A DNA stretch of 64,000 nucleotides, taken from NCBI RefSeq assembly GCF_044324785.1, contig NZ_CP172129.1; one strand, 5' to 3'. Source of the DNA: Escherichia coli (GTDB lineage: Bacteria > Pseudomonadota > Gammaproteobacteria > Enterobacterales > Enterobacteriaceae). A program made the position numbers and the translations under genes. Of the stretch, positions 37,007 through 50,953 are shown in pieces. Position 1 is the stretch's first letter, and every line of letters begins with the position of its first letter. The notes under the pieces were generated by a model. That model had not been told where the DNA came from. It worked only from the letters and a program-made list of their open reading frames with translations, and did no database searches.

Positions 37007-38041
37007 TTAAAGCTGTGCTGCCAGAGTTGATAATAATTGTTCTGTCTGTTGCCATGATATGCATTCATCAGTAACAGACTGACCATACTCTAGCGGAAAA
37101 CTATCGGATTGTTTTCCATCTTGTAAAAAGCTTTCCACCATAATGCCAGCTACATATCCTGGTATTTTTTTCCGATTATCTATAACTTGACGTGCAACGG
37201 AAATTTGCCGTTTAGCCACTTTACCGCTATTACCATGGCTACAATCAATTATCAGACGATGGTTAATACCCTCATCATGCATTAATTTCACTGCCTTAGT
37301 TATATCAGACAAACCATAGTTAGGTTCTCTACCTCCACGTAATATTAGATGTCCATGTGGATTGCCATCGGTTAATAGTGTAGATATACTATTTGTTAAA
37401 GATGTCATATATACAATATGTTGTTCACGGGCTGCAATAATAGCGTCAATAGCTAAGTTAATATTTCCATCAGTACTGTTTTTAAATCCAACTGGACAAT
37501 GTAAACCAGACGCAAGTTGACGATGCGTTTGTGATTCAGTGGTTCTGGCACCAATAGCACCCCAACATATTAAATCAGCAATATAGGGAGTAAGAAAAGG
37601 ATCGAGGAATTCTGTAGCGGTTGCGACACGCATCGTTGTGATTGAAGACAAACACTGGCGAGCATATCGTATCCCTTTCTCAACATCATAACTTCCATTT
37701 AGATCAGGATCGTGCATTATTCCCTTCCAGCCTTTACGGGTTCGAGGTTTCTCAAAATAAGTGCGCATTACAATGTACATTTTCGATAAGTACTTATTCT
37801 GTAATACGAACAATCGCTTCGCATAATCAACTGCGGCCTGAACGTCATGGATTGAGCATGGACCAACAATCACAAGTAAGCGAGGATCTTTTCCCAGCAA
37901 AATATTCGCTATAATATCTCGTTGCAGAGAGATCCATGTTACGGTTTCTTCCGATACTGCGATTTCTTTATGAATCTCGCCCACAGTGGGTAAACTGCCA
38001 AGCAACTTCCCGCGGTAGATTAATTTACTAGCTGACTGCAT
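37007..38041 (-). CDS. Class I 3-deoxy-7-phosphoheptulonate (DAHP) synthase, AroG/AroF/AroH-like
   Basis: 344-aa ORF with DAHP synthase I features (…LLVIVGPCSIHD…IDCSHGNS…). Confidence 0.8.
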   Translation of the reverse strand: MQSASKLIYRGKLLGSLPTVGEIHKEIAVSEETVTWISLQRDIIANILLGKDPRLLVIVGPCSIHDVQAAVDYAKRLFVLQNKYLSKMYIVMRTYFEKPRTRKGWKGIMHDPDLNGSYDVEKGIRYARQCLSSITTMRVATATEFLDPFLTPYIADLICWGAIGARTTESQTHRQLASGLHCPVGFKNSTDGNINLAIDAIIAAREQHIVYMTSLTNSISTLLTDGNPHGHLILRGGREPNYGLSDITKAVKLMHDEGINHRLIIDCSHGNSGKVAKRQISVARQVIDNRKKIPGYVAGIMVESFLQDGKQSDSFPLEYGQSVTDECISWQQTEQLLSTLAAQL

Positions 38042-38244
38042 CTTGTCTCCTAAAAGCGCTATTTCAGACCATCAGTTGCACACAGTAGATGATAATGATA
38101 ATCATTTACTGTATAATTGGCAATATATGGGGATTCATAGTCATTTCTGAGATAATATACGTTAGGCCTTCTCTCCCGTACGGAAATCACTTGTTTTCCG
38201 TAAATTACCTGAATCTTAATCCCTGAGCTGCGGCTAGCTGTGGA

Positions 38245-38582
38245 ACTCACAAAAGCTGACCGGGCCGTGGCACAGCCTCTCTGCTGGCAGAACAGCGTAC
38301 TGCAGAAGTCGTCGTACTGCCGCTGGTCCCGGCATCAGGTCTGCCCGCAGATGGCACTTCTGCCACTGATCTGCCGGTGGAGCTGAACGGCATGACATAT
38401 CAGGCCTGCCGTGGGGATTTTGTGGTGCGCCTCGACGGCAGCACCTGTCTGCAGTTATAGAATAAAGAAGGCGGGGAGGTACGCAGGGAGGGCGATCCGC
38501 TGGAAGTGGCGTAGTGGCTGTAGGCCTGTAATGATGCAGGAATAGAAGTTCGTGTACAGGTTAATGAAAGCATCACCCCGTA
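38245..38582 (+). pseudogene. Decayed copy of the 3' half of the gene at 47720-48310, with in-frame stops
   Basis: DNA aligns with 47955-48310 at high identity but carries stop codons (…CAGTTATAGAATAAA…, …GTGGCGTAGTGGCTGTAGGCC…). Confidence 0.6.
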
Positions 38583-38600
38583 AAAACATGCCGGCACGGT

Positions 38601-38909
38601 TTACACATCATTCCATGGTGGCAGCCGGTTAACTTTCCTGCGCCACCAGTGGAAAGAGGCCATGAGCAGTCCGAACAAAAAACCACTCGTGATACTTATA
38701 ATAATGGCCTCACCTGCTACCATTCCTGACGGCCCCCAGTACATAAACCACATTGCACATCCCCAGGAAATACCCCATAAGCCCCCCATCAGCAGCGTAA
38801 CCTGCCAGAACGGCATAAAGGGCAATGGCGGAAGCCGGATACCCAGCCGCCAGAGAATACGCAGCAGAGGAGGAGCATAATTACTCCGCCACATCTTTTT
38901 GCTGTCCAT
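38601..38909 (-). CDS. Small membrane protein, paralog of 48330-48587
   Basis: 102-aa ORF with hydrophobic segments; 28 aa longer than the paralog at 48330-48587. Confidence 0.45.
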   Translation of the reverse strand: MDSKKMWRSNYAPPLLRILWRLGIRLPPLPFMPFWQVTLLMGGLWGISWGCAMWFMYWGPSGMVAGEAIIISITSGFLFGLLMASFHWWRRKVNRLPPWNDV

Positions 38910-39076
38910 CAGGGCAATTGCCCGGGCTTTTTTTGCTCAAAAGTCACAGGAGCACCTCCGTTCCATGATGTAAACGTGACACAACTTATTGTTATTGATT
39001 ATTATTATCATACCGTGATTATGTTGTCATGCACCTGTACACTGATAAAAGAAAGGGAGAACAGGAGGCTGGCTGA

Positions 39077-44495: not shown

Positions 44496-44664
44496 ACCAT
44501 AGAGGAATTACAAGCGTATGAGGAATATTTCTTCCTGTTATAATTCCTCGTTATGCTCAGATATCTGTTGGAGGTGGAATGGAAGATAGACAATCCACCA
44601 AGAAGAAATATCATTCTGTGTGGATTGTCCAATAACTGTTCTTTCTTATATTAAATAATACTAT

Positions 44665-44976
44665 TTATAAACAAACATCACTAAGATTATTTGGACTCCA
44701 ATTACACAATCTTCCCGCAGCATAGTTCCATGCTTCTGAAGGTATCCCTTCGGGTTTTTGCTTAATTGTTCCCCCTAAACCGGATGGAGACATTGCAGGA
44801 TTAGGTTTGTGAGTGGATGCATAGTCATATATTGCACCTCCAGCCACACCCCCAGCAGCTGCTCCAATTCCTCCTGCAACAAATTGCCCGGATAGTGTTC
44901 CTATAGCCATCGCAATATCACGCCCTGAAGCACCACCAGAAACAGAATCTAATTCATTTAGAGTCAGAGTTCTCAT
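44665..44976 (-). CDS. cvaC: CvaC, colicin V (microcin V) precursor with double-glycine leader
   Basis: 103-aa ORF MRTLTLNELDSVSGGASGRD… matching CvaC. Confidence 0.9.
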   Translation of the reverse strand: MRTLTLNELDSVSGGASGRDIAMAIGTLSGQFVAGGIGAAAGGVAGGAIYDYASTHKPNPAMSPSGLGGTIKQKPEGIPSEAWNYAAGRLCNWSPNNLSDVCL

Positions 44977-45190
44977 ATGATCTCCTTTTTATCTTATCGG
45001 ATATTGAATAATAATTATCACCAACAAAGTAACATATTGCAGACATTAATGCAGAGAAGCAAAATGTATGCATGGATAAAAAGTCCTTTCCTCTAAAAAC
45101 ACAATCATATATAGCTAATGCAATATATATTGCGGTGGCATTTATTATAAATGCAAATAACAACTCTAATTTTGTTCTTTTTCTATCCAT
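44954..45190 (-). CDS. cvi: Cvi, colicin V immunity protein
   Basis: 78-aa hydrophobic ORF directly upstream of and overlapping cvaC. Confidence 0.85.
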   Translation of the reverse strand: MDRKRTKLELLFAFIINATAIYIALAIYDCVFRGKDFLSMHTFCFSALMSAICYFVGDNYYSISDKIKRRSYENSDSK

Positions 45191-45237
45191 TACTTTTTAT
45201 CCCATTACTTTCTATCCCATTACCACACAAACACTAA

Positions 45238-45256
45238 CGATAATGATTATCGTTAA
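45238..45256. promoter_or_regulatory. Fur box in the cvi-cvaC promoter
   Basis: CGATAATGATTATCGTTAA about 50 bp upstream of the cvi start. Confidence 0.6.
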
Positions 45257-45308
45257 CATAGTCAAGAGTGAAGGGTAGGAGGCCCTCAACCCCCTATAAG
45301 GGGTCCGC

Positions 45309-46128
45309 TTGGAAAACGGATTTCCCCACGTCAAGAGAATTGATTTGAACGAGTGGCTTCGCTACAAACAGCTCCCGTTTGTGTGTGAAAAACCCCTCTC
45401 AACAGATCTCAACTCTGCACGATATCTACAGGAGATTGCTCCAAAAGGCAGTATCGTGTCTTTTAACTACCGATATAACCCCGTCATCGACATGATAATG
45501 CGTCTGAGAAATGAGAAGAAATTAGGTGAACTGCATTTCTTCTCAGCAGAATTTAATAAAAATTCTGCACTGACCCGCCATCACCTGACCTGGCGAGACT
45601 CCGCACAACAGAGCAAAAGCAGCGGTGCTCTGGGCGATCTATCCTGTCATCTGCTTGATTTATTTTGTTTTATAGGGGAAAGCCCGGTAGTGGTTCATGG
45701 GATCAAAACGGTAAAGGGGACACGTGGGTACAAAATCAGATGGTCAGGTTGAAGTGGATGATAACGGCTATGTAATGGGCAGTTCAGAAAAGGGAGCTTA
45801 TTTCAGAGTTCATGCCAGTAAATCGGAAACAGATCATAATTTGGGACTGCATATACAGCTTGTATTTGAAAATGGTGAAATCAGATATTCAACCCACCAT
45901 GAAAATCGCCTGCTCCTGATTCTATTTAATGATACGAATACGGAAACAATTGGCTTCGACGCTCTGAAACGCTTGCCTGATCCACCACGGGAGCTTCCAT
46001 TCTGGTCTGATTCGTTTATTCATCTTCATGACGACTGGTGTGCTCTTATTAAATATGGTCACTCGTCTCCTAAGCTGGCGGACCTGTCATCCGGCCTTCA
46101 TATACAGGAAATAATTGAGGCATTCTGA
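45309..46128 (+). pseudogene. Gfo/Idh/MocA-family oxidoreductase remnant (lacks N-terminal Rossmann domain, internal frameshift)
   Basis: ORFs 45309-45752 and 45724-46128 in different frames; first contains the conserved EKP motif region (…FVCEKPLS…). Confidence 0.45.
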
Positions 46129-46129
46129 T

Positions 46130-46399
46130 ATGGATACCATTCTTTTAACCGGGCTGTTTGCTGCATTTTTCACAACGTTTGCGTTCGCTCCCCAGAGCAT
46201 AAAAACTATCAGGACACGCAATACCGAAGGTATCTCCGTTGTTATGTATATCATGTTCCTGACAGGTGTAATCTCATGGATAGCGTATGGCATTATGCGA
46301 TCTGATTTTGCCGTACTGATCGCCAATATTGTCACACTGTTTCTGGCTGCACCAGTGCTTGTAATAACACTTATCAACCGCAGGAAAAAACACGTATGA
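46130..46399 (+). CDS. Small membrane protein with a PQ-loop (SemiSWEET-like) motif
   Basis: About 89 aa, three hydrophobic segments and an AFAPQ motif. Confidence 0.4.
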   Translation: MDTILLTGLFAAFFTTFAFAPQSIKTIRTRNTEGISVVMYIMFLTGVISWIAYGIMRSDFAVLIANIVTLFLAAPVLVITLINRRKKHV

Positions 46400-46662
46400 A
46401 TATTGCAATCATCGGCGCGGGTCCTGCCGGCATCATTTCTGCCCGTAATGCGATTAAAGCAGGTCACTCCGTGGTTCTGTTTGAGAAGAATACCCGAATT
46501 GGGGGGATCTGGAACCCCTGGAGTGGTGGCGCTTACCGTAATGCCTGTATGCAGAACTCTCGTTATACATTTCATTATACTGGCTTTCCCCCTGGCGATA
46601 TCGATGAACGAAGTTGGATGCAAATGTCAGATCGTGTGCGCCTGTTAGGGCGCGGCTGGTAA
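46396..46662 (+). pseudogene. N-terminal fragment of an FAD/NAD(P)-binding oxidoreductase
   Basis: Dinucleotide-binding motif IAIIGAGPAG followed by premature termination at 88 aa. Confidence 0.4.
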
Positions 46663-46717
46663 GAGAGCCTTATAGGCGCATTTGAAAAACCTCCGGCTAT
46701 GCCGGAGGATATTTATT

Positions 46718-47170
46718 TCATAATATTCTGAGCAGTCTTGCCGGGTTTCCTGCATAAATGCCTTTGTTCTCAATCGGTTTTACCACAACTGAACCCGCAC
46801 CAATAACAGCTCCGCTGCATATATACGGAGACAGAATAATGGCTCCACTGCCAACAGTAACCGAATCCCCCAGGGTAATGCTGATCCAGTTATCCGGTGA
46901 CGGATCTGGTGCTCCTGAACGAAACAGATCGTTGGCGAACGTCACGTTATGACCAATGAAGCAGTTCTCCCCCAGTGTTACGTTCTCACAAATAAACGTG
47001 TGCGACTGTATCCGGCTTCCACTACCAATGACACAGCCTTTCTGTATCTCAACGAAGGGGCCGACAAACACGTTGTCCCTGAGTTCACATTCATAAATGT
47101 TGACCGGTTTGACAATACGGACATTGGTCCCATAAATCACATCCCGGACAGCACATTCCATAAATTTCAT
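46718..47170 (-). CDS. Hexapeptide-repeat (left-handed beta-helix) acyl/acetyltransferase
   Basis: Repeated [LIV]-G-x-x-x-x hexapeptide pattern through the ORF. Confidence 0.55.
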   Translation of the reverse strand: MKFMECAVRDVIYGTNVRIVKPVNIYECELRDNVFVGPFVEIQKGCVIGSGSRIQSHTFICENVTLGENCFIGHNVTFANDLFRSGAPDPSPDNWISITLGDSVTVGSGAIILSPYICSGAVIGAGSVVVKPIENKGIYAGNPARLLRIL

Positions 47171-47462
47171 ACTCACACGTCCTTTAAATACAGATGACAC
47201 TTGCCGGAATTATACAGCCCAGATTCACTTGCTATGTTTCAGAATAGCTTATAAGCCGCACTTTTACCGATACTCAGCAACAAATCAGGTCTGGATCCAC
47301 TTCAGCCGGAAACCGGATCTGCGCGGCGGGGAACGGGCATACAATATGATAATTAAGCAACTTATATAAAACCATATCTGATATTATTAATAATAAATAA
47401 CACACAAATCATGCGGGATATGATTTTTATTTGTCAGAACATTATCAGATGGAGCGTGCAGG

Positions 47463-47723
47463 ATGGATGAAGAAAGGGTGTTTTCACTCAGCTATGAACA
47501 ACTGACCCGGTTTGCGGAAAAACGCATCCGGGAATGCAATCTGGACAGCCAGGGCGTAACTTATCTCTGCGAGTCAGCCAAAGCCGGAGCTGTGCTGATC
47601 TTCTGGCATGAACTGGCCATAAATGGCTATGCCTCAATGAATGCCATAAAGAGACAGGAGATCATTGACGCCGACCATCAGCGCCTCAGAAAGCTCATCT
47701 GGCCGGAGGATGACTGGAAATGA
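47463..47723 (+). CDS. Hypothetical protein (86 aa), first gene of an overlapping two-gene unit
   Basis: ORF with ATGA stop/start overlap to the next gene. Confidence 0.4.
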   Translation: MDEERVFSLSYEQLTRFAEKRIRECNLDSQGVTYLCESAKAGAVLIFWHELAINGYASMNAIKRQEIIDADHQRLRKLIWPEDDWK

Positions 47724-48310
47724 CTCAGAGCCGCCGACCGTCGCCACTGCAGCGAAGAATGCTGATTGTGCTGGCTGCCCTTGATGAAAAACGGCCAGGA
47801 CCCGTGCTGACGCGGGACATAGAACGGGTGCTGGAGCGAAGCGGGGAAGCCCCAGTCTACGGGCCAAACCTGCGCGCCTCCTGCCGTCGTCTGGAGGATG
47901 CCGGCTGGCTGCGTACCCTGCGCGCTCCGAACCTGCAGCTGGCAGTGGAGCTGACGGACGTCGGCCGGGCCGTGGCACAGCCTCTGCTGCTGGCAGAACA
48001 GGACCGCCTCCGGGCAGAACAGCGTGCGGCAGAAGTCGTCGTACTGCCGCTGGTCCCGGCAGCAGGTCTGCCCGCAGATGGCACTTCTGCCACTGATCTG
48101 GCGGTGCAGCTGAACGGCATAACGTATCAGGCCTGCCGTGGGGATTTTGTGGTGCATCTCGACGGCAGCACCTGTCTGCAGTTATGGAATAAAGAAGGCA
48201 GGGTGGTACGCCGGGAGGGCGATCCGCTGGAAGTGGCGCAGTGGCTGCAGGCCTGTCACGATGCAGGAATGGAGGTTCGCGTACAGATAAATGAAAGTGC
48301 CGCTCCGTAA
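47720..48310 (+). CDS. Hypothetical protein (196 aa), GC-rich
   Basis: Coupled to the upstream ORF; a decayed second copy exists at 38245-38582. Confidence 0.45.
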   Translation: MTQSRRPSPLQRRMLIVLAALDEKRPGPVLTRDIERVLERSGEAPVYGPNLRASCRRLEDAGWLRTLRAPNLQLAVELTDVGRAVAQPLLLAEQDRLRAEQRAAEVVVLPLVPAAGLPADGTSATDLAVQLNGITYQACRGDFVVHLDGSTCLQLWNKEGRVVRREGDPLEVAQWLQACHDAGMEVRVQINESAAP

Positions 48311-48329
48311 GAACACGCCTGTGCACGGT

Positions 48330-48587
48330 TTACACATCATCCCATGGTGGCAGCCGGTTAACTTTCCTGCGCCCCCAGTAGATAAACCACATTGCACATC
48401 CCCAGGAAATGCCCCATAAGCCCCCCGTCAGCACCGTGACCTGCCAGAACGGCATAAAGGGTAATGGCGGAAGCCGGATACCCAGCCGCCAGAGAATACA
48501 CAGAAGAGGAGGGGCATAATTGCTCCGCCACATCTTTTTGCTGTCCATCAGGGCAATGGCCCGGGCTTTTTTCTGCTCAAAGGTCAC
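48330..48587 (-). CDS. Small membrane protein (85 aa), paralog of 38601-38909 with a 28-aa in-frame deletion
   Basis: Hydrophobic ORF; aligns with 38601-38909. Confidence 0.4.
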   Translation of the reverse strand: MTFEQKKARAIALMDSKKMWRSNYAPPLLCILWRLGIRLPPLPFMPFWQVTVLTGGLWGISWGCAMWFIYWGRRKVNRLPPWDDV

Positions 48588-48715
48588 AGGAGCACCTCCG
48601 TTCCATGATGTAAACGTGACACAGCTTATTGTTATTGATTATTATTATCATGCTGTGGTTATGTTGTCATGCATCAGTACACTGACAAAAGTGCAAAAGA
48701 AAGGAAAACAGGCAG

Positions 48716-49051
48716 ATGAACAGAAAATATTATTTTAATAATATGTGGTGGGGATGGGTGACGGGGGGATATATGCTGTATATGTCATGGGATTATGATT
48801 TTAAATACAGATTACTGTTCTGGTGTATTTCTCTCTGCGGAATGGTTTTGTATCCGGTTGCAAAATGGTATATTGAAGATACAGCTCTGAAATTTACCCG
48901 GCCTGATTTCTGGAACAGCGGTTTTTTTGCTGATACACCTGGAAAAATGGGATTGCTTGCTGTTTATACGGGTACTGTTTTCATATTATCTCTTCCGTTA
49001 AGTCTGATATATATTCTTTCTGTTATTATAAAAAGGCTGTCTGTAAGATAG
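48716..49051 (+). CDS. Colicin Ia immunity protein
   Basis: 111-aa membrane protein MNRKYYFNNMWWGWVTGGYMLYMSWDY… matching colicin Ia/Ib immunity; convergent with cia. Confidence 0.85.
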   Translation: MNRKYYFNNMWWGWVTGGYMLYMSWDYDFKYRLLFWCISLCGMVLYPVAKWYIEDTALKFTRPDFWNSGFFADTPGKMGLLAVYTGTVFILSLPLSLIYILSVIIKRLSVR

Positions 49052-49072
49052 ACAGCCTGTCTTATATTTTAT

Positions 49073-50953
49073 TTAAATACCCCAGAACTTATTCGCTTTT
49101 TCCACAAGCGATTCATCAATCAGCGCACCGGTGACAGCCATCAGTAAACCATACCCGATAATGCCTAAAGCGCTTCCGGTAAGAATACTGAAGACCAGTG
49201 CAACAAGAGCCGTTGCGGCATTGCCTGCTATAATGGCTTCTGTTTTAACAAAAAGAGGACGCCAGTTCTCTGTCCGGACACCCTTACCAAACTCAGTGAT
49301 CCAGTCAGCAAGACTTGTAAATTTTCCTGCATATCCCAGTCCCCGACTGAATCTGTTCAGATTAGACGATATATCAGACAGCTTCACTGACTCAAGGGCT
49401 GCGGCAATCGCTGCACGATCTTTTGCATTAATTTTTTTGTTAATGTCAGCCCGGTACTTTTCATACGTTTTTAATGCCTCTTCAACATTACGTATTTTCT
49501 TCCCTTTAGCCTGCCCGGCCATCTCTCTGGCTAACTGCTCAGCTTTTGCACCATATTTTTCTGAAACTGATTTCAGGAACTCTGTTGTGAAATTAATTGC
49601 GTCTTTCGTTGCCTTCAGTTCATCCTGTTTTCTTTTCTCTTCCGCTATCTTCTGATTGATGCCGGCAAGCTGGTTACGGATATTCTCTTTTTCCTTCAAC
49701 AGGGCATTAAGAGCGTCATTTGCATGCTTTTGCTCATTTGTTCTGGCACTGAGGTTATTTCTCGCAGAATTTACCGCAGATTCAGCAGAGGTGATTTTAT
49801 TTCTGGCATCAAGCAATCTTTGCCGTAACTTATCCCATTCAGCAACTTCAGCATTATAAATTTTCTTGTCACCTTCCACATCCTCTGTCACCACCGGATT
49901 CCGGTCATTCAGAATATTGCGTTTATAGTCCAGACCGGAATGGGTCAGAAGATAATTCAGGTTTGCACGGTTATCGATGACTGCGCTGGTTGTGATTTTT
50001 ATCGTACCGGCAAATCTCGGATCACCGCTCACAACAATAGAATGATTTGTTGATGAACGCCCCGGGAATTTTTCAGGGGAAACTATCGTTTTGCCGTCAA
50101 GCGTGTTTTTCTGTTGCGTCAGCTGTTGCTCAGCTCTGGTTAATGCATTACGGGCCGTGTTAAGCGATTCCGTCACTGAACTGAGTTTATTCCGGGCCTC
50201 TGAAATGGCCCTGTCATTCCGTGTCTGCTGCCCGAGCAGACGGGCCTGTTGTGCATCAAGAACGGCAAGGGCTGCCCCGCCATTTTTTTCCAGCTCTGAC
50301 AACCGCGTGTCCAGAATACCTTTTCTGCGCTCGTATTCAGCAAGCATATCAGCGGCCTTCTTGTCTGCGTTCTGCGCATCCTTCTGCCGTTTTTCAGCCT
50401 GTTCGATTAACGACCTGGCCTCCCGGGGAGATATACGAAGAGAATCAGCATCAGCAAAGAGCATCCGGCTCTCTGTATGCAGCCGGAGGGCATCATATCC
50501 GGCGATTTCAGTACGGAATCCGTATTCTCTCAGCTCTGCCTGCAGGAGTCTGAACTCCTGTCGTGTAATATCAGCGGCATCTGCGTTTCCGGCACGGAGT
50601 GTTTTCAGTGTGTTTTCATCTTTTTCCCTTGCAGCAATCGCCGCAGAGAGGCGTTTTGCGGCTTCAGTACGCTTATTCTCATTCTCTTTCTGCTGCGCGC
50701 TGAGCGTCATTTTGTACGCTGTGATTTCCTTGTCCCTTTTTTCGATATCACTTCGGGTTGGGGAATCATCGACCCACTCGTTTCCGCCCCAGATGGTTTT
50801 GTTCCCGAAGGAACTCCATGCAGGCGGGGTACCATGAAAGACATCGACACGTGGAGGGTTTACATAAATATCAACGGCCATAATTTCATGGCCATCTGAA
50901 TCATACCCCAGCGATTCTGCACCGGGATTTGTAATACGTACAGGGTCAGACAT
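49073..50953 (-). CDS. cia: Colicin Ia (pore-forming colicin)
   Basis: 626-aa ORF MSDPVRITNPGAESLGYDSDGHEIMAVDIYVNPPRVDVFHG… with long coiled coil and C-terminal hydrophobic channel domain. Confidence 0.9.
   Translation of the reverse strand: MSDPVRITNPGAESLGYDSDGHEIMAVDIYVNPPRVDVFHGTPPAWSSFGNKTIWGGNEWVDDSPTRSDIEKRDKEITAYKMTLSAQQKENENKRTEAAKRLSAAIAAREKDENTLKTLRAGNADAADITRQEFRLLQAELREYGFRTEIAGYDALRLHTESRMLFADADSLRISPREARSLIEQAEKRQKDAQNADKKAADMLAEYERRKGILDTRLSELEKNGGAALAVLDAQQARLLGQQTRNDRAISEARNKLSSVTESLNTARNALTRAEQQLTQQKNTLDGKTIVSPEKFPGRSSTNHSIVVSGDPRFAGTIKITTSAVIDNRANLNYLLTHSGLDYKRNILNDRNPVVTEDVEGDKKIYNAEVAEWDKLRQRLLDARNKITSAESAVNSARNNLSARTNEQKHANDALNALLKEKENIRNQLAGINQKIAEEKRKQDELKATKDAINFTTEFLKSVSEKYGAKAEQLAREMAGQAKGKKIRNVEEALKTYEKYRADINKKINAKDRAAIAAALESVKLSDISSNLNRFSRGLGYAGKFTSLADWITEFGKGVRTENWRPLFVKTEAIIAGNAATALVALVFSILTGSALGIIGYGLLMAVTGALIDESLVEKANKFWGI

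Follow-up and report, generated by a model that had tools for sequence, protein, structure and literature searches.

A probable remnant of a kanosamine-type aminosugar cluster beside colicin genes on an Escherichia coli plasmid, and its link to EcSemiSWEET

Why does an Escherichia coli plasmid carry a handful of broken and intact sugar-enzyme-like genes between two colicin regions? The question is raised by positions 45356–47170 of a 64,000-nucleotide stretch of a ColV/ColIa plasmid (NCBI RefSeq assembly GCF_044324785.1, contig NZ_CP172129.1); the whole of that stretch is called the window below. A first-pass annotation made from the sequence alone had recognised four elements here, correctly placed between the colicin V and colicin Ia regions: a Gfo/Idh/MocA oxidoreductase, a small membrane protein, the stub of an FAD oxidoreductase and a hexapeptide acyltransferase. 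It had read them as fragments of a nucleotide-sugar modification or polysaccharide locus. Comparison with intact relatives points to another origin. The segment is probably the 3' part, now decayed, of a conserved cluster of six genes that in intact form most likely produces kanosamine, an aminosugar antibiotic, or a derivative of it and exports the product. The two intact genes of the segment are most likely young leftovers.

The remnant and its intact counterpart

The segment is flanked by cvaC/cvi and colicin Ia genes and is laid out as follows, with the open reading frames (ORFs) that cover each gene.

44665-45190: cvaC/cvi
45200-45355: flank of the colicin V immunity gene, ending at the left junction 45355/45356
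45356-46128, plus strand: KabC/NtdC-like dehydrogenase pseudogene, codons 81-338 only, with a 2-bp deletion; read as ORF 45309-45752 (plus, TTG start; piece 1) and ORF 45724-46128 (plus; piece 2)
46130-46399, plus strand: SemiSWEET gene, intact, 89 amino acids; ORF 46115/46130-46399 (plus)
46396-46608, plus strand: stub of a flavin-containing monooxygenase (FMO), codons 1-71 of 510; ORF 46396-46662 (plus), its frame continuing into foreign DNA
46609-46715: remnant of an IS200 3' end, about 105 bp, no transposase gene
46718-47170, minus strand: hexapeptide acyltransferase gene, intact, 150 amino acids, the convergent sixth gene of the cluster; ORF 46718-47170/47200 (minus)
48716-50953: colicin Ia immunity and cia genes

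Profile searches of the ORFs gave all four elements family support far beyond chance. The 2.25-kb arrangement of the window recurs at 100% identity on many E. coli and Salmonella plasmids, and in other plasmid records about 1.3 kb of additional sequence splits this DNA. E. coli S88 (pECOS88) and ATCC 11775 are among the strains that carry exactly the remnant of the window. On plasmid pRM13752 (L002) the genes form a complete cluster of five co-directional genes and a convergent acyltransferase gene, in which window 45356–46608 corresponds to L002 8004–9258 at 99.5% identity and window 46716–48382 to L002 10608–12306 at 94%. The intact cluster encodes the following proteins.

L002 5710-6948: DegT-family pyridoxal phosphate-dependent aminotransferase, 412 amino acids
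L002 6932-7759: HAD-IIB hydrolase, 275 amino acids
Third gene: Gfo/Idh/MocA oxidoreductase, 338 amino acids
Fourth gene: SemiSWEET, 89 amino acids
Fifth gene: flavoprotein, 510 amino acids
Convergent sixth gene: acyltransferase, 150 amino acids

The identity of the pathway is carried by the first three enzymes. Among solved structures, the best relatives of the aminotransferase were KabA (7KZ3, E = 1e-90) and NtdA (4K2B, 7e-88), with WbpE next at 6e-50, and the best relative of the phosphatase was NtdB (3GYG, 5e-46), with the next match at 1e-06. The dehydrogenase had no close solved relative in the PDB comparison; it falls in a well-delimited family whose source names are NtdC or glucose-6-phosphate 3-dehydrogenase, and we used a Bacillus cereus-group member of this family, P0139, as the anchor for its identity. 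The intact dehydrogenase is 33% identical to P0139, a KabC orthologue, over 341 residues (E = 1e-52), and P0139 itself lies directly 3' of a HAD gene and an aminotransferase fragment that is near-identical to KabA over 214 residues (E = 6e-129). In Bacillus, the KabC/NtdC, KabA/NtdA and KabB/NtdB enzymes convert glucose-6-phosphate to 3-oxo-glucose-6-phosphate, kanosamine-6-phosphate and finally kanosamine (Vetter et al. 2013 and Prasertanan & Palmer 2019, as summarised in PMC8788734). An intact copy of the present cluster would likewise oxidise glucose-6-phosphate at C3, transaminate the product and dephosphorylate it to kanosamine (3-amino-3-deoxy-D-glucose); the FMO, the acyltransferase or both may then modify the 3-amino group, and the SemiSWEET would let the product out of the cell.

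Like the ntdABC(-glcP) operon of B. subtilis and kabABC of B. cereus, the cluster combines these three enzyme families in one and the same order, and with ntdABC-glcP it also shares a sugar transporter gene directly after the dehydrogenase. In contrast to both Bacillus operons, it is gammaproteobacterial and mostly plasmid-borne, it adds a conserved FMO and a convergent acyltransferase, which imply chemistry on the 3-amino group beyond the known Bacillus pathway, and it has no adjacent LacI-type NtdR. Its transporter is a SemiSWEET in place of GlcP, which belongs to the major facilitator superfamily (MFS). That the plasmid cluster resembles ntdABC was mentioned briefly for a plasmid of enteroaggregative E. 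coli (PMC5320562), and an ntdA gene was noted on a Salmonella plasmid (PMC3401170); a literature search on kanosamine in Erwinia, Pantoea and related taxa found nothing relevant.

Of the ntd/kab core, the window keeps just a frameshifted two-thirds of the dehydrogenase gene. A KabC/NtdC-type glucose-6-phosphate 3-dehydrogenase is present as a pseudogene only, the NtdA/KabA-type aminotransferase lies left of 45355/45356 in the intact allele and is not in the window, and the gene for an NtdB/KabB-type HAD-IIB kanosamine-6-phosphate phosphatase is absent. Since all three core enzymes are missing or broken, the pathway cannot run, and to judge from its gene content biosynthesis is dead in the window copy.

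The same comparison decides the fate of the polysaccharide reading. Fragments of an O-antigen or capsule locus, or of another nucleotide-sugar modification set, would suit the gene families, as DegT-family aminotransferases, Gfo/Idh/MocA dehydrogenases and hexapeptide acetyltransferases are all common in polysaccharide loci, and the weaker NCBIfam and PDB matches include PseC, ArnB, WbpE, QdtC and WlbB. However, the intact cluster contains no nucleotidyltransferase, nucleoside diphosphate (NDP)-sugar dehydratase, glycosyltransferase, flippase, polymerase or polysaccharide export gene, and none of these was present in the conserved flanks on E. coli plasmids or in Erwinia, Pantoea and Rodentibacter either; it has an NtdB-like sugar-phosphate phosphatase instead. 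Moreover, the aminotransferase matches KabA and NtdA about 40 orders of magnitude better than any NDP-sugar enzyme. Full-length syntenic clusters, which the first-pass annotation had proposed to look for in chromosomal O-antigen or capsule loci, do exist, but their chromosomal copies sit among central-metabolism genes, outside such loci. We therefore rejected the polysaccharide origin once the intact cluster was found, and consider it highly improbable. What stands of the original claim is that the elements belong to one sugar-modifying set and that this set has decayed on the plasmid.

Breakage of the cluster

The first-pass description of a Gfo/Idh/MocA gene that has lost its N-terminus and its frame agrees with the alignment to the intact allele. 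In profile searches, ORF 45309–45752 matched PF22725 (6.8e-08) and PF02894, which are Gfo/Idh/MocA C-terminal domains, and ORF 45724–46128 matched no family; the intact 338-residue allele of pRM13752 carries PF01408, PF22725 and PF02894. Homology to this allele begins at window position 45356, which is codon 81, so 80 codons with the N-terminal Rossmann part are gone, and the ORF with the TTG start takes its initial 15 residues from the unrelated flank. The loss of 2 bp (GG) between 45723 and 45724 divides the remainder into 45356–45752 and 45724–46128. The pseudogene aligns to L002 8004–8778 at 99.5% identity. With 80 codons absent and a frameshift, the dehydrogenase gene is, as read from the DNA, not functional.

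The left end of the remnant is a sharp junction. Cluster-free ColV/ColBM plasmids share 45200–45356 with the window and diverge exactly at that point, where the window reads GAACGAGTG followed by GCTTCGC and the intact allele GAAGAAGTG followed by CTTCGC, with a short microhomology. A microhomology of only a few bases indicates that illegitimate recombination fused the cluster to the cvi flank. Lost at this junction were the aminotransferase gene, the phosphatase gene and the first 80 dehydrogenase codons.

At the right end, ORF 46396–46662 contains the authentic FMO codons 1–71 (to 46608), and its last 17 codons are read from the IS200 remnant, in keeping with the N-terminal stub of an FAD oxidoreductase that had been proposed. 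The stub retains the FAD-binding motif GAGPAG, and the profile search finds a bare FAD/NAD(P) Rossmann motif; with residues 1–71 only, the window holds no full-length FMO fold with both FAD and NADPH motifs. It is the intact 510-residue flavoprotein that reveals an FMO-type monooxygenase, with a match to the FMO-like family PF00743 (8.6e-45) and with both the FAD (GAGPAG) and the NADPH (GGGVSG) motif. In family and motifs this allele resembles class B flavin-containing monooxygenases, whereas the window copy keeps 71 of 510 codons. The best solved relative of the intact FMO is 8ODW, a "polyketide synthase modules-related protein" (4e-63) that is probably an amine-oxidising (oxime-forming) polyketide synthase domain.

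RefSeq lists the two dehydrogenase pieces as WP_001323891.1, "Gfo/Idh/MocA family oxidoreductase", and WP_001389361.1, "hypothetical protein", and the 88-residue FMO::IS200 fusion as WP_001017350.1, "FAD-dependent oxidoreductase". These three proteins are decay artefacts: what the annotation presents as separate "oxidoreductase", "hypothetical" and "FAD-dependent oxidoreductase" genes are really pieces of pseudogenes.

The DNA to which the cut FMO gene is joined, 46609–46715, is missing from the intact cluster. It matches the DNA directly 3' of an intact IS200 tnpA on an IncI plasmid (L003), as well as IS200-family copies on E. coli, Yersinia and Xenorhabdus plasmids. On the IncI plasmid, IS200 lies beside the same acyltransferase gene and replaces the whole five-gene operon. 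Compared with a complete IS200 of the IS200/IS605 family, which has tnpA and both ends, the window holds a 3'-end fragment of about 105 bp, with no tnpA ORF in 46609–46715, and this fragment is not mobile. The fragment contains a perfect 8-bp hairpin (46690–46708) with a predicted folding energy of −21.1 kcal/mol (z = −2.9). T-runs flank this hairpin on both strands, and it scores as terminator-like in either direction; lying between convergent genes, it looks like a two-way terminator by its predicted structure. The sole outcome of an Rfam scan of 44500–48800 was a weak match to Ysr202, a Yersinia small RNA, at 46685–46774 on the minus strand over the IS200 remnant. Its 30.8 bits lie far below the gathering score of 315, so the sequence does not belong to that family. 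The match is probably due to the Ysr202 family overlapping an IS200/IS1541 end, and about 70 Yersinia plasmids also share these 110 bp.

Plasmid pG12a has the same left junction and frameshift as the window but keeps 326 FMO codons and is cut by an IS66 element. The left truncation and the frameshift are thus common to both plasmids, and the right-hand damage arose independently more than once.

Remnants are commoner than intact copies. A 120-bp probe for the left junction, searched in PLSDB and in 5,426 complete E. coli genomes, was found on 288 PLSDB plasmids and in 340 of the genomes, and the right junction of the window type on 116 PLSDB plasmids. The intact five-gene operon (at least 80% covered) was present in 66 of the 5,426 genomes and any part of the operon in 540; almost all matching places in these genomes were on plasmids (566 of 570). 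About 59 PLSDB plasmids, including pAPEC-O1-ColBM (NC_009837.1), carry at least 80% of the 5.6-kb six-gene cluster, and their hosts also include E. albertii, E. fergusonii, Klebsiella and Salmonella. The 30–66 kb region of the classical F plasmid has no cluster, unlike pRM13752, where the cluster adjoins ccdAB.

Several features of the surrounding DNA were also recorded. First, a diverged direct repeat of about 820 bp (38228–39051 and 47933–48691, 79–95% identical, 9.7 kb apart) encloses the ColV operon, the cluster remnant, the acyltransferase gene and two hypothetical genes. It spans the 3' part of a 196-residue ORF and a DUF6404 gene, whose left copy encodes 102 amino acids and right copy just 85. 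A repeat that brackets the block in this way suggests that the block originated by recombination of two related plasmid backbones, and the repeat could also drive deletion of the enclosed block. Second, 47463–48310 contains two overlapping ORFs of 86 and 196 amino acids with 59–65% G+C, against about 43% around them; neither has a Pfam or NCBIfam match. Both adjoin the acyltransferase gene in every E. coli plasmid examined (the window, L001, L002 and L003), and the 196-residue ORF has a ratio of non-synonymous to synonymous substitution rates (dN/dS) of about 0.3, on differences too few to prove selection. Third, left of the repeat lies a 344-residue ORF (37007–38041, minus strand), by the appearance of its sequence a putative 3-deoxy-D-arabino-heptulosonate 7-phosphate synthase of aromatic amino-acid biosynthesis.

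Relatives of the cluster in other genomes

Clusters of the same type were found in the following taxa, where A, B and C stand for the aminotransferase, phosphatase and dehydrogenase genes.

Erwinia amylovora chromosome: A-B-C-SemiSWEET-FMO and convergent acyltransferase; FMO split, acyltransferase shortened
Erwinia sp. E602 plasmid: A-B-C-SemiSWEET-FMO and convergent acyltransferase
Pantoea ananatis chromosome: A-B-C-SemiSWEET-FMO and convergent acyltransferase
Photobacterium leiognathi: the same six genes, decaying
Rodentibacter ratti: A-B-C-SemiSWEET-FMO at 55% identity, adjoining integrase and relaxase genes
Zooshikella plasmid: A-B-C-SemiSWEET
Vibrio hepatarius and Elizabethkingia: A-B-C only
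Staphylococcus epidermidis: LacI regulator, A-B-C, then an MFS transporter

The co-directional, adjacent A-B-C order holds in the intact relatives on E. coli plasmids and in these taxa. The Staphylococcus layout mirrors that of B. subtilis, which is ntdR followed by ntdABC-glcP (PMC5730154). From these two layouts, a transporter directly after the dehydrogenase is a recurrent feature of such clusters as far as gene order tells, and in Gammaproteobacteria that transporter is a SemiSWEET.

Gene content also bears on the direction of the pathway. SemiSWEETs are bidirectional uniporters (PMC4309421), and the PDB relatives of the dehydrogenase include catabolic C3-oxidising enzymes such as levoglucosan dehydrogenase, so the ancestral cluster could be pictured as catabolic, its SemiSWEET importing a sugar or aminosugar that the dehydrogenase and a reverse-acting aminotransferase would degrade. 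We regard this as very unlikely. The cluster includes a phosphatase but not a kinase, in its A-B-C order and its best matches it agrees with the ntd and kab operons, which are biosynthetic, and neither a regulator nor downstream genes for catabolism are conserved alongside it.

Decay is seen outside E. coli as well. In E. amylovora (L004/L005 9289–11300), the FMO is split into 47 and 481 amino acids and the acyltransferase is down to 130; in P. leiognathi (L018 3192–6243), the dehydrogenase has fallen into three pieces and the aminotransferase is truncated; in Zooshikella (L009 4941–6187), the aminotransferase is split. Such decay in Erwinia, Photobacterium and Zooshikella suggests that the cluster can often be done without or carries a cost.

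The SemiSWEET and the acyltransferase

The small membrane protein that the first-pass annotation had called SemiSWEET-like turned out to be EcSemiSWEET itself, its 89 residues being 100% identical to PDB 4X5M/4X5N. The gene is intact at 46130–46399; the start listed for it, a TTG at 46115, only extends the frame upstream. The protein scored 96.7 bits on the NCBIfam profile SemiSWEET_2 (cut-off 80), with PF04193 and PF03083 also above their cut-offs, and it has the three-helix length, the PQ motif and the pocket Trp and Asn of the family. Residues P21, Q22, W50, Y53, D59 and N66 are invariant across the orthologues in Erwinia, Rodentibacter and Zooshikella. The window protein is identical to that of the intact pRM13752 cluster; its ATG lies 1 nt past the dehydrogenase stop codon, with GAGG upstream.

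Since the protein does not differ in sequence from the crystallised EcSemiSWEET, what is added here is its genomic context. Close homologues (59–99% identity) occur in the same taxa as the cluster, many of them on contigs that also bear the dehydrogenase gene, and the two contexts examined, in Pantoea ananatis and Photobacterium leiognathi, were both the six-gene cluster. In every close homologue examined, the SemiSWEET is the fourth gene of a kanosamine-type operon. Sucrose uptake by EcSemiSWEET is slow and non-saturable, and sucrose may not be its physiological substrate (Lee et al. 2015, PMC4309421). The operon context suggests a role in export, with kanosamine or a derivative altered at the 3-amino group as the candidate substrate. 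Our literature search found no paper connecting a SemiSWEET with kanosamine or with this cluster, and a paper on SemiSWEET gene context mentions neither aminotransferases nor Erwinia or Pantoea.

The hexapeptide acyltransferase was likewise correctly recognised: it matches Pfam Hexapep (PF00132) at 1.4e-15 and 56.6 bits (cut-off 27) and is of the left-handed beta-helix type. It is annotated as 150 amino acids at 46718–47170 on the minus strand, and a GTG at 47200 would add 10 residues that RefSeq does not use. Its nearest solved relatives are sugar N-acetyltransferases, namely WxcM-like 4MZU, QdtC 3FS8 and WlbB 3MQG at about 1e-10, and they include VioB, with matches spanning 1e-10 to 2e-09. 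It falls below the cut-off of the NeuD/PglB/VioB subfamily (TIGR03570), reaching 60.3 bits against 160.8 through the C-terminal repeats only. The window enzyme shares its hexapeptide repeats with QdtC, WlbB, the WxcM/FdtD-type enzymes and VioB but is much shorter than they are, at 150 amino acids, and lacks their N-terminal domain for nucleotide-sugar binding. Its identity with the E. amylovora enzyme is 81%, and the gene keeps the same convergent position in Erwinia, Pantoea and Photobacterium. Copies that are at least 90% identical occur on about 344 plasmids, some of which have lost the whole operon. The idea that it belongs to the colicin Ia flank was considered and rejected: the convergent arrangement occurs in Erwinia, Pantoea and Photobacterium, where there are no colicin genes, and on the IncI plasmid IS200 stands exactly at the place of the operon.

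The suggestion that the membrane protein and the acyltransferase may still be functional holds for the ORFs, which are both intact. A promoter scan of 44900–47500 gave 5 sites against 6.7 expected, none of them convincing upstream of the SemiSWEET gene, and with such a count the scan says nothing about SemiSWEET expression.

Why, then, are these two genes intact while every biosynthetic gene around them is broken? One answer is selection. Competitors with the intact cluster would make kanosamine-type compounds, and the SemiSWEET, the acyltransferase or both could be kept as an orphan module for tolerating them, either by exporting the compounds or by N-acetylating their 3-amino group, in analogy to orphan bacteriocin immunity genes. 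In favour of this are the persistence of the acyltransferase, at 90% identity or more, on about 344 plasmids, IncI plasmids with the operon replaced by IS200 among them, and the sugar amino groups that its nearest solved relatives acetylate; the placement among colicin and immunity genes would suit a role in competition. On the other hand, the truncation has separated the SemiSWEET gene from the 5' end of its operon and no promoter of its own stands out, the homologue search found many shortened SemiSWEET variants in E. coli, and both genes are small targets in a young remnant that is still 99.5% identical to the intact allele. We consider such a module unlikely, though the least unlikely of the alternatives weighed here; most likely, the two genes are young leftovers that have yet to degrade and do not form part of a working system.

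Several points weigh against this interpretation and against the kanosamine assignment behind it. First, most sampled plasmids keep both the SemiSWEET and the acyltransferase ORF whole, which selection could also explain. Second, the acyltransferase differs from the intact-cluster copy by 1 nt and from the IncI copy by 5 synonymous and 4 non-synonymous changes, and its dN/dS of about 0.2 is based on 8–9 differences, too few to tell selection from youth. Third, we infer kanosamine production from homology at 33–40% and from synteny. Lastly, given the FMO and the acyltransferase, the final product may be other than kanosamine itself.

The remnant is ordinary in itself, and its value lies in pointing to the intact variant and to the transporter link. 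An intact kanosamine-type cluster, apparently unstudied so far, is present in about 1% of complete E. coli genomes and on chromosomes of Erwinia and Pantoea. The presence of the intact cluster on mobile DNA beside colicin genes suggests that the bacteriocins share their competition islands with a small-molecule weapon. Going further, we tentatively propose, as a possibility somewhat short of even, that EcSemiSWEET (PDB 4X5M) exports kanosamine or an N-oxidised or N-acetylated derivative made by a hitherto uncharacterised, mobile six-gene antibiotic cluster of Enterobacterales, and that the acyltransferase and SemiSWEET of the remnant may act as orphan self-protection in plasmid-versus-plasmid competition beside the colicins. 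The structurally best-known bacterial SemiSWEET, described in 2015, thereby gains a testable substrate hypothesis.

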